Positions 57,779 through 59,134 of a stretch of 64,000 bases of DNA are shown in pieces (the first letter of the stretch is position 1; each line of letters begins with the position of its first letter). A program made the position numbers and the translations under genes. Location of the stretch: positions 1-64,000 of the IMG/VR virus record IMGVR_UViG_2816332320_000003; one strand, given 5' to 3'. Under the pieces are notes generated by a model. The model was not told the origin of the DNA. It searched no databases and saw only the letters and a program-made list of their open reading frames with translations. The stretch is from a virus. Lineage: Duplodnaviria > Caudoviricetes.

Positions 57779-57802
57779 CTACCAATCAAAGAGAGTTTTC
57801 GT

Positions 57803-57960
57803 TGGGTTTCATCTAGTGAAGCACTAGAATCAATTTCCTATATAAAATCCATAGGCTACACTCATGTCTGAGAGGTGTCCAACGTACACATCTACTACTC
57901 ACGCTCTAGGCGATTTGTAGATACTTTTTACTCGTATAGTGAGTTAAGTTTGTACTATGA
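57803..57960 (-). ncRNA. putative TnpB omegaRNA region (boundaries uncertain)
   Basis: About 100 nt non-coding stretch 3' of tnpB with hairpin CTAGTG-CTT-CACTAG (57813-57827); position expected for omegaRNA. Confidence 0.45.
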
Positions 57961-59099
57961 TTATCATTAAGAATGTTAATCGCCCCAACGATGTCTCTAT
58001 GTTGCTTGTAACCGCAAGTACAATCGTAGTTACGCTTTATAGGTTTATTTATATTCTTGCATGCTGGACATTTAGAAGACGTGTAATATTCTTTTACTTT
58101 TACTAATTTAATCCCATATCGTGTTAGTTTATTTTTCAGTTGATTCATTAATTCCCCATAGTTCCATTGGGATAATTTTTGTCTGACAAAAGTATTACCT
58201 TTGTCATTTTTTCTCGTACTTCTCGTGACCCCGTCTAAGTCGCCATAATACACTGTAGAAATCTGGTTCTCCAGACAATAATCTAGATACAATTTACTTA
58301 TCTTATGTACGCAATCATTAACCTTGTTTTCATATCTTACTTTTAATTTACTCATCGCTCGAATATATTTTCTTCGTTGACTTGATCCTTTCTTACACTT
58401 GCTCATTCTTTTGTAAATCTTTGCTTGTTGTTTATTTCTATGTTGCTTAATACTTCGCATCTTTCGACCCGTGATAATAATTGCATTACCACTATTATCA
58501 ATTGACGTTATGGAGTGAATTTCTCCAAGATCGATTGCTGCTGTATTTTTAGATTTTACCTGTATATAAGATGCTTTTTCTTTATATTTAATAGATAAAT
58601 AAAGCCTTTTATCATACTTTAATTCAACTTGCACAATGTTTTGTGGCAATGATTTAGATAAGCACACAACTGGCTTACTTCTTCTCAGATTGTCATGAGT
58701 ATCAATGTAATCAGGTTTTGATAAATAGATTTTGCCTTTTGCGTAATCTACTTTGATACTCTGTGAATCCCATCCTGTATTGAAGTACTTTTTCTTTTTC
58801 CATGGATATTTTACATTTAATATTCCTTTTTTCTTTGATTGCAAAGCTCCATCTCTTGCAAACAGATATTTGTGTGCTACATAATGAATACCTTTTGCAT
58901 GAAGATCTATGCACTTTTTGGTCGCTTTTTGTAAGTCGTTTCTGCTTATCCATTTCCCGTCATTTTCTTCACTGTATTTTGTAGCTAACTCTAAACAAAG
59001 ATTCCAAACATATGCCGACTTTTTATTTAAACCATATAGATACTTTAGATCATGAGAGGAGCATCTTACTGGTACATTAATCGTTCTATAGTGATACAT
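57906..59099 (-). CDS. tnpB: RNA-guided endonuclease TnpB (rearranged RuvC-II type), no tnpA
   Basis: AIDLG; YYGDL plus alternative E in VKEYYTS; CPAC..CTCG; HRDIVGAINI. Confidence 0.9.
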   Translation of the reverse strand: MYHYRTINVPVRCSSHDLKYLYGLNKKSAYVWNLCLELATKYSEENDGKWISRNDLQKATKKCIDLHAKGIHYVAHKYLFARDGALQSKKKGILNVKYPWKKKKYFNTGWDSQSIKVDYAKGKIYLSKPDYIDTHDNLRRSKPVVCLSKSLPQNIVQVELKYDKRLYLSIKYKEKASYIQVKSKNTAAIDLGEIHSITSIDNSGNAIIITGRKMRSIKQHRNKQQAKIYKRMSKCKKGSSQRRKYIRAMSKLKVRYENKVNDCVHKISKLYLDYCLENQISTVYYGDLDGVTRSTRKNDKGNTFVRQKLSQWNYGELMNQLKNKLTRYGIKLVKVKEYYTSSKCPACKNINKPIKRNYDCTCGYKQHRDIVGAINILNDNHSTNLTHYTSKKYLQIA

Positions 59100-59134
59100 T
59101 TCTTCACCTCCTTTCAATAAATGACAGATTTGAT

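Follow-up and report, generated by a model that had tools for sequence, protein, structure and literature searches.

What is a tnpB gene doing in a phage genome when it has no tnpA gene and no left end by which it could be mobilized? This question is raised by a locus in the window, defined here as the whole 64,000-nucleotide stretch analysed (positions 1 to 64,000 of IMG/VR virus record IMGVR_UViG_2816332320_000003, Caudoviricetes). The complete record is 163 kb long and is classed as a provirus. All coordinates are positions in the window, and the tnpB locus lies on its minus strand. In the current view TnpB is a helper: once TnpA has excised a transposon, TnpB restores it. A preliminary description proposed that this tnpB moves as a cassette between two short palindromes. 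The sequence comparisons presented here indicate that the locus is an intact, non-autonomous TnpB module of a RuvC-II-rearranged lineage found mainly in phages.

A tnpB module without tnpA or a left end

The tnpB coding sequence (57906-59099) encodes 397 amino acids, with an ATG at 59099 and a TAG stop at 57906-57908. It is preceded by a 17-nucleotide leader, TGAAAGGAGGTGAAGAA (59100-59116), containing the ribosome-binding site (RBS) block GAAAGGAGGTGA, which is the leftmost conserved sequence of the family. Directly upstream of the leader is an 18-nucleotide near-copy of a palindrome found at gene junctions, ATCAAA-TCTGTC-ATTTAT (59117-59134). This 18-mer has one mismatch and sits directly 3’ of the TGA stop (59135-59137) of an upstream gene with a 72-amino-acid product. 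The coordinates and motifs in the preliminary description were all correct on re-reading, as was its statement that only 17 nucleotides, with no left-end hairpin, separate the upstream 18-mer from the ATG. The 5’ region of the window copy contains no left-end hairpin and folds no better than shuffled sequences (z +1.29). The reported absence of tnpA also holds, as no match to the Y1 transposase (PF01797) was found across the 163-kb provirus. Y1_Tnp was likewise absent among the Pfam-matched gene calls around 12 fetched family contexts.

Family DNA was collected from 12 close loci (Geobacillus virus E3, two IMG/VR contigs, prophages of Geobacillus, Priestia and Lederbergia, and metagenome contigs) and later from about 10 more. 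Across some 20 relatives, mostly large phages and prophages with 39-64% protein identity to the window copy, the common part consists only of the RBS, the open reading frame (ORF), and approximately 110 nucleotides of 3’ RNA. Most of these ORFs are about 390-400 amino acids in length. Conservation on the left starts at the RBS block; between elements that are 78-80% identical, blastn homology begins 14 nucleotides before the ATG.

An element of the IS605/IS1341 type in decay, having lost its left end in this copy only, would also present no left end and no tnpA. Such a remnant has next to no probability here. It is contradicted by the family comparison, in which about 20 relatives have the same architecture, mostly full-size ORFs, and a conserved RNA. 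Because the whole family is without tnpA and a left end, the window copy is not a truncated insertion sequence (IS). Homologues with standard ends had been named in advance as the finding that would overturn the preliminary description, and none of the family has them. Since there is neither a left end nor a transposase, the module cannot be moved by a Y1 TnpA, and peel-and-paste transposition is excluded.

A complete IS605 element is present in E3 (L001:850-3010), approximately 1.1 kb upstream of the solo copy. It is composed of tnpA and a second tnpB of 485 amino acids, and its ends form classical hairpins (ATGAC-TTTA-GTCAT and ATGGC-TTTA-GCCAT) that bear no relation to those of the solo copy. 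Each of the five bacterial genomes examined holds a single family member, and any Y1 TnpA in them is located tens of kb away or on other contigs. The provirus holds one family copy, not the multiple copies by which IS200/IS605 elements are recognized. The genes beside the module differ from phage to phage, and the downstream gene is unlike in every relative.

Three relatives (L008, L009, and L014: 2746-3000) carry a divergent 52-amino-acid RHH_3 (Arc-like) gene upstream of tnpB, in three different contexts. Homology among the three loci begins at the stop codon of this gene. The perfect palindrome AACTACATGTAGTT lies between the RHH_3 gene and tnpB in L009 and L014; L008 differs at that position. 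The window copy has no such gene, and its neighbours show no significant Pfam match.

Two observations concern the start of the ORF in other contigs. At L037:2428-2450, in a metagenomic relative, the conserved N-terminus (IYKTV...) is read from an ATT codon directly after an in-frame TAA, and the gene call begins 18 codons late. Three contigs (L038-L040) break within 8-15 nucleotides of that ATT start or 132 nucleotides past the stop. These breaks were considered as a possible presence/absence polymorphism and were left unused, as the break points fit neither border model.

The TnpB protein matches Pfam families OrfB_IS605 (5e-14, 52.9 bits, cut-off 30.5) and Cas12f1-like_TNB (1e-19, 70.7 bits, cut-off 26.3). 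A first scan of genome contigs with the single protein as query gave no match. A total of 566 TnpB homologues were found, with a top identity of 64%, and many of them lie on contigs as long as large phage genomes (100-175 kb). The preliminary description had read RuvC-II as GDL with an alternative Glu in VKEYYTS; both are present and are invariant in the family. In 17 aligned members with 50-64% identity to the window TnpB, the invariant residues are D190 (IDLGE), G286-D287 (YYGDLD), E337 (KEYYTS), H367-R368-D369, and four zinc-finger Cys. In a profile alignment to solved Cas12f/TnpB chains, Gly286 aligns with the RuvC-II Glu of canonical proteins (‘vyyGDL’ here, ‘iqmEDL’ there), and Glu337 falls where canonical proteins have a Pro before YTS. 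The family profile matches the ISDra2 chains with an E-value of only about 2e-6, and Fanzor2 (PDB 9B0L) is the third-best PDB sequence match. A Gly at the canonical Glu together with a conserved alternative Glu is what defines the RuvC-II-rearranged (RIIr) TnpB clades. In those clades, structure models suggest that the alternative Glu completes the active site, and some of the rearranged branches are reported as virus-specific (PMC10691335). The pattern of invariant residues indicates that the full catalytic set is under purifying selection, as is the fold of the RNA described next.

The omegaRNA and its joint with the half-palindrome

The approximately 110 nucleotides 3’ of the tnpB stop are conserved better than the ORF itself. 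The omegaRNA scaffold has a minimum extent of 57797-57924 and is composed of stem 1 across the stop codon, hairpin A, three more hairpins, and a closing pseudoknot. Hairpin A (57875-57889) has a GTGT/ACAC stem that is 100% paired, with compensatory changes in three of its four pairs. Its loop contains the 5’ strand of the pseudoknot, CGTTGG (57879-57884), which pairs with the 3’ strand CCAACG at 57800-57805. All cells of this helix are paired, and all six pairs show compensatory changes.

The consensus fold of 12 sequences contains the stop-spanning stem, hairpin A, two conserved hairpins, one variable hairpin, and the long-range helix. Treating the long-range helix as a pseudoknot gives 95.7% paired cells; shuffles reach 77%, and slid partners 16-47%. 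Compensatory changes occur in 17 of the 25 base pairs of the consensus, and the RNA sequence of the window adopts the same fold. The variable hairpin, CTAGTG-CTT-CACTAG, is at 57813-57827, where the preliminary description had placed it. It starts 79 nucleotides past the stop rather than about 100, and an 18-mer at the right end of the module follows 10 nucleotides further on. A hairpin of other sequence seems to fill this position in relatives, as judged by eye and uncounted. No Rfam match was found within 57000-59600, and a search with nhmmer for more omegaRNA copies in the provirus returned this one only. The covariation pattern indicates that the 3’ RNA is a functional omegaRNA.

The right-end 18-mer is best described against the palindromes of the genome. 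The junction palindrome has the form ATNAAA-N6-TTTNAT, that is, a left arm, a 6-base-pair spacer, and a right arm. The provirus contains 54 perfect copies where 3 are expected, and the form ATCAAA-N6-TTTTAT alone has 17 copies on one strand against 0.1 expected. Perfect and one-mismatch copies together number 127 against 54.6 expected, a modest enrichment. The commonest form on the coding strand, ATAAAA-N6-TTTGAT, has its mismatch at the third arm position. The palindromes sit directly 3’ of a stop codon, 1-20 nucleotides ahead of the next RBS. They occur at about 50 gene junctions (2886-60824 within the window) and flank most accessory genes. The same junction motif is present in E3, L006, L007, L008, L010, and L025. 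A general repeat finder missed these 18-mers.

Both 18-mers that flank tnpB are one-mismatch copies of the junction palindrome, and the tnpB ORF itself contains two more with one mismatch. Because copies of this grade are only modestly enriched, the upstream 18-mer is weakly supported when taken by itself. The right site is backed by family conservation, the left site only by its typical position between stop codon and RBS. The proposal that the borders of the unit coincide with the palindromes fits the right end, where at least 17 of 20 relatives agree; the left border is weak in the window and heterogeneous in relatives.

The right-end 18-mer, ACGAAA-ACTCTC-TTTGAT (57785-57802), is a hybrid. 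Its first six bases, ACGAAA (57797-57802), are the end of the pseudoknot 3’ strand followed by AAA, and they stand in for the left arm of a palindrome. The first three bases (AC followed by A or G) are pseudoknot positions, and they covary with the bases to which they pair. At the second arm position, C occurs twice in the provirus and T 54 times. The C is explained by the pseudoknot, as the pairing fixes it. The spacer and right arm resemble those of any junction palindrome. This joint was compared among 20 relatives with at least 48% identity, Clostridia contigs among them. In at least 17 of the 20, AAA (in rare cases GAA or TAA) comes directly after the pseudoknot, then a variable stretch of six bases and TTTNA(T), and similarity stops there. 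The half-palindrome keeps its exact register even where no gene follows closely (L009, L013, L014, and L015).

This register bears on a reading in which the module is passive cargo, shuffled by recombination at the palindromes or at RBS microhomology. The nuclease would then have no role in the spread of the gene, and it may serve the phage, for example by the exclusion of competitors. The palindromes do flank most accessory genes and are found in related phages too, the unit begins on its left with nothing more than an RBS, the family is single-copy in the genomes checked, and no direct sign of homing is present. Set against this are the catalytic set and RNA fold under purifying selection, and the exact scaffold and half-palindrome register in at least 17 of 20 relatives. 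Since the register persists in the four relatives without a close gene, it points to a functional link between guide and site that goes beyond mere neighbourhood. Passive cargo is considered unlikely.

Predicted guide start and TAM, and a proposed mode of spread

The position of the pseudoknot also suggests where the guide begins. In ISDra2, the 3’ strand of the pseudoknot occupies positions -6 to -2, one nucleotide ahead of the guide, and a pseudoknot before the guide is general in Cas12 guide RNAs (PMC10097598). In the window, the covariation-supported pseudoknot ends at ACG, 3 nucleotides ahead of the spacer. From this distance and the one-nucleotide spacing of ISDra2, the guide most likely starts at the spacer or within one or two bases of it, from 57796 onward (ACTCTCTTTGATTGGT). 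It would probably consist of the spacer and right arm (ACTCTCTTTGAT...), directly after the scaffold end ...CCAACGAAA. The predicted guide of 16-20 nucleotides (57777-57796) would run from the spacer through the right arm into the beginning of the next RBS. The earlier suggestion that the guide reaches into the palindrome is very likely correct, given where the pseudoknot lies. The only full match to the predicted guide in the provirus is its own site.

With a guide that starts at the spacer, the transposon-encoded motif (TEM) would be C-G-AAA, and the transposon-adjacent motif (TAM) should be similar with minor differences, as it is in ISGst2. By this analogy, the TAM is probably the true left arm T-N-AAA (ATNAAA). 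A candidate of the form ATCAAA is still on the left flank, as the left arm of the upstream 18-mer (59129-59134), in the typical spot between stop codon and RBS. Joined to ACTCTC-TTTGAT, the left-flank arm gives a perfect palindrome. The sole difference between the resident allele and this predicted target lies within the predicted TAM.

A different right end was initially preferred and is that of the preliminary description. The same module would end after TTTGAT, in the manner of classical IS200/IS605 ends with a terminal TEM. The guide would be TGGTAGGTGTATCAAT (starting TGGTAGG and running over the RBS into the start of the next gene), and TTNAT, the right arm, would serve as the TAM. Several points agree with it. 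Reported TAMs include TTGAT (ISDra2), TTTAT (ISGst2), and TTCAT (ISGst5 IscB), and the spacing between scaffold and TTTNAT is constant. E3 and L006 have the same sequence up to the end of TTTTAT and differ from the very next base on. This reading was downgraded after the pseudoknot had been mapped. It would place the pseudoknot 15 nucleotides from the guide, with six hypervariable nucleotides in between, against 1 nucleotide in ISDra2. It would also leave a resident TTNAT in front of the target, and self-cutting would follow in the seven of 18 relatives with a terminal TTTAT. The pseudoknot register points to the left arm, T-N-AAA, so the arm ends TTTAT and TTGAT are probably not the TAM. A right end after TTTGAT is improbable on balance; it retains about a fifth of the weight because E3 and L006 share the 18-mer and diverge past it.

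The guide that starts at the spacer, with the left arm as TAM, suggests a mode of spread. The TnpB ribonucleoprotein (RNP) would cut an intact ATCAAA-ACTCTC-TTTGAT in a related phage without tnpB, during co-infection or during superinfection of a lysogen. Repair or recombination from the tnpB-bearing genome would then copy the module in, which amounts to homing. No sharp left border would be expected, just as free-standing homing endonuclease genes have none (PMC13565253). The resident copy would escape cutting, since its pseudo-arm reads AC where the true arm reads AT.

A pair of loci in related Priestia prophages agrees with this guide start and TAM. In L014 (4281-4298), the omegaRNA abuts TGTGAC-TTTTAT. 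In L009 (4291-4341), the omegaRNA abuts another half-palindrome, and an intact ATAAAA-TGTGAC-TTTTAC follows 15 nucleotides further on. The predicted guide of L014, TGTGACTTTTAT, matches this intact palindrome, located 33 nucleotides downstream of the homologous element in L009. The arrangement in L009 looks like the insertion of a 33-nucleotide unit (spacer, right arm, 15 nucleotides, and left arm) where arm and spacer meet.

A homing-type selfish gene is the best fit to the varied neighbours, the constant half-palindrome, and the purifying selection taken together. The reading of the locus as a homing-type TnpB-omegaRNA module, with a guide that would start at the spacer and a TAM that would be the left arm, is put at about an even chance. 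A broader proposal is more tentative and falls somewhat below that. It holds that this phage-restricted TnpB lineage is a TnpA-independent RNA-guided homing element with the left arm as TAM and the 6-base-pair spacer as seed. The junction palindromes, which in this view punctuate the accessory-gene arrays of a broad group of Bacillota phages, would then be landing pads, and the spacer would be the address.

Several points weigh against the homing account. The guide start relies on analogy with one solved structure, and activity of the rearranged site in bacterial TnpBs is a prediction in the published account rather than a measurement (PMC10691335). No tnpB-less relative, empty site, or presence/absence polymorphism was found for this phage or any family member. 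Near and distant DNA searches of phage collections with the locus and its flanks gave no match. IMG/VR scans with both flanking proteins, and another with the spacer-arm-RBS string of the window, likewise gave none, and a search for relatives of E3 downstream of its tnpB returned E3 alone. Two metagenome scans for the relative L037, aimed at a vacant site or at any copy of its right flank, also gave nothing, in a collection that evidently does not include the samples concerned. The lack of an empty site is attributed to the collections searched, which hold no near-relative of the phage or of the family members. In addition, E3 and prophage L006 are identical over the whole 18-mer including the spacer and diverge only past TTTTAT, a point of divergence that suits a right end beyond the right arm no less well. 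The pseudo-arm of L008 and L009, ATGAAA, resembles the true arm and would give no self-immunity. The left flank of the relatives is varied, with 6-30 unconserved nucleotides from an arm-like hexamer to the RBS, and AT-rich DNA commonly contains hexamers that resemble ATNAAA.

The predicted target includes the 5’ leader of the downstream gene (57545-57769), which encodes 74 amino acids from a TTG start at 57769. Its RBS, GGTAGGTG, begins one base past the right-end 18-mer. A guide that covers the 5’ leader of the next gene would also suit a nuclease-independent regulator of the TldR kind, in which the RNP would repress the downstream gene by binding to its palindrome and RBS. Domesticated TnpB repressors are known (PMC10705468). 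TldRs are nuclease-dead by name (PMC13622181) and are recognized by the loss of RuvC residues, whereas the Asp/Glu/Asp set of this family is invariant. The downstream gene also differs in every relative, and regulation of this kind is regarded as highly improbable.

If the homing account is true, the locus would be a natural case of RNA-guided homing without a transposase. It would also give a concrete handle on the purpose of the junction palindromes in these phages. The module would supply a compact nuclease with a rearranged active site and possibly an unusual A-rich TAM.

Genomic setting and comparison with known systems

The tnpB gene is an ordinary member of an accessory-gene array, and the genes around it are short, co-directional with it, and mostly without a Pfam match. 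An MrpR-type repressor, DndB, a tubulin homologue, and an APOBEC-like deaminase are encoded near tnpB. A 379-amino-acid ORF with Pfam matches to the APOBEC/AID family belongs to the same array and lies four genes downstream of tnpB, at 54270-55409 (minus strand). When TnpB and the upstream 72-amino-acid protein were looked up by exact match, the genome of the window alone was returned, and the same TnpB protein was also found on a 6.6-Mb bacterial chromosome. A promoter and terminator scan of the tnpB locus gave no signal exceeding shuffles. SPbeta-type genes (YopX, YonK/YonJ, and MrpR) are present in the neighbourhoods of relatives, and on this basis the gene content points to an SPbeta-like, Bacillus-type prophage of 163 kb as the host element.

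SPbeta itself (L041, 60-109 kb) has three copies of the 18-mer in 49 kb against 1.3 expected and is not enriched. All three are intergenic, and two lie just upstream of the RBS of yopW and yoqZ. Since SPbeta is not enriched, dense palindrome punctuation appears to be a trait of only some SPbeta-like phages. The 18-mer was also considered as SPBRE, the operator of the master repressor MrpR. This identity is unlikely, as SPBRE is a 15-base-pair motif at about ten promoters and SPbeta has three 18-mers against 1.3 expected; the judgement draws on the description of SPBRE. One junction palindrome of the window (50024-50041, minus strand) reads ATAAAA-GAAGGA-TTTTAT followed by CTAA and agrees with the predicted guide of the E3 TnpB (GAAGGATTTTAT, then ATAA) at 15 of 16 positions. 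Over all comparisons, about 0.5 spacer matches of this quality are expected, so this one may be due to chance.

One of the closest known systems is the IS200/IS605 TnpB of ISDra2 from Deinococcus radiodurans (PMC8612924, PMC10097598; PDB 8H1J, 8BF8, 8EXA). Both proteins are about 400 amino acids in length with a RuvC domain and a zinc-finger TNB domain. In both, the guide RNA overlaps the 3’ end of the gene, a pseudoknot closes the scaffold ahead of the guide, and the guide is taken, or is predicted to be taken, from flanking DNA. Unlike ISDra2, the module described here has no tnpA and no left end, and it has Gly in place of the canonical RuvC-II Glu, together with an alternative Glu. The TAM of ISDra2 is TTGAT, whereas here a phage junction palindrome is predicted to supply both TAM and seed.

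ISGst2 TnpB2 of Geobacillus stearothermophilus shares the Bacillales host range (10.1101/2023.03.14.532601). In ISGst2, the TAM (TTTAT) and TEM (TTCAC) are similar and not identical, so that the occupied site is spared and the nuclease homes on the vacant site (10.1101/2023.03.14.532601). Excision and insertion in ISGst2 are carried out by TnpA and need both ends. For the module described here, a vacant site would exist only in other genomes. The RIIr clades (PMC10691335) and Fanzor2 (PDB 9B0L) share the Gly at the canonical Glu and the alternative Glu; the link to a junction palindrome seen here is not described in the account of the RIIr clades (PMC10691335).

The free-standing Seg and Mob homing endonuclease genes of T-even phages (PMC13565253) are also intergenic nuclease genes that lie between phage genes without a transposase. 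Such genes are expected to spread when a double-strand break arises in a relative that co-infects the cell, which converts the flanks along with the gene and leaves no discrete left border (PMC13565253). In Seg and Mob the protein reads the target, whereas here the RNA is predicted to do so. Transposon homing into co-infecting phages, like homing into a different genome with no transposase, has until now been regarded as theoretical (PMC13565253). The three relatives with an RHH_3 gene and an operator-like palindrome (L008, L009, and L014) resemble the IS605 elements that combine Arc with TnpB (bioRxiv 10.64898/2026.09.24.754181), from which the window copy differs in having no RHH gene. Lastly, the module resembles an integron cassette, a promoter-less gene unit bounded by an imperfect palindrome (attC), in that a gene and its 3’ site recur together in different contexts. 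No IntI-type integrase, attI, or Pc was seen, and no search was directed at them. The site here is 18 base pairs in length, against about 57-141 base pairs for attC, and in several relatives the left border falls off-site.

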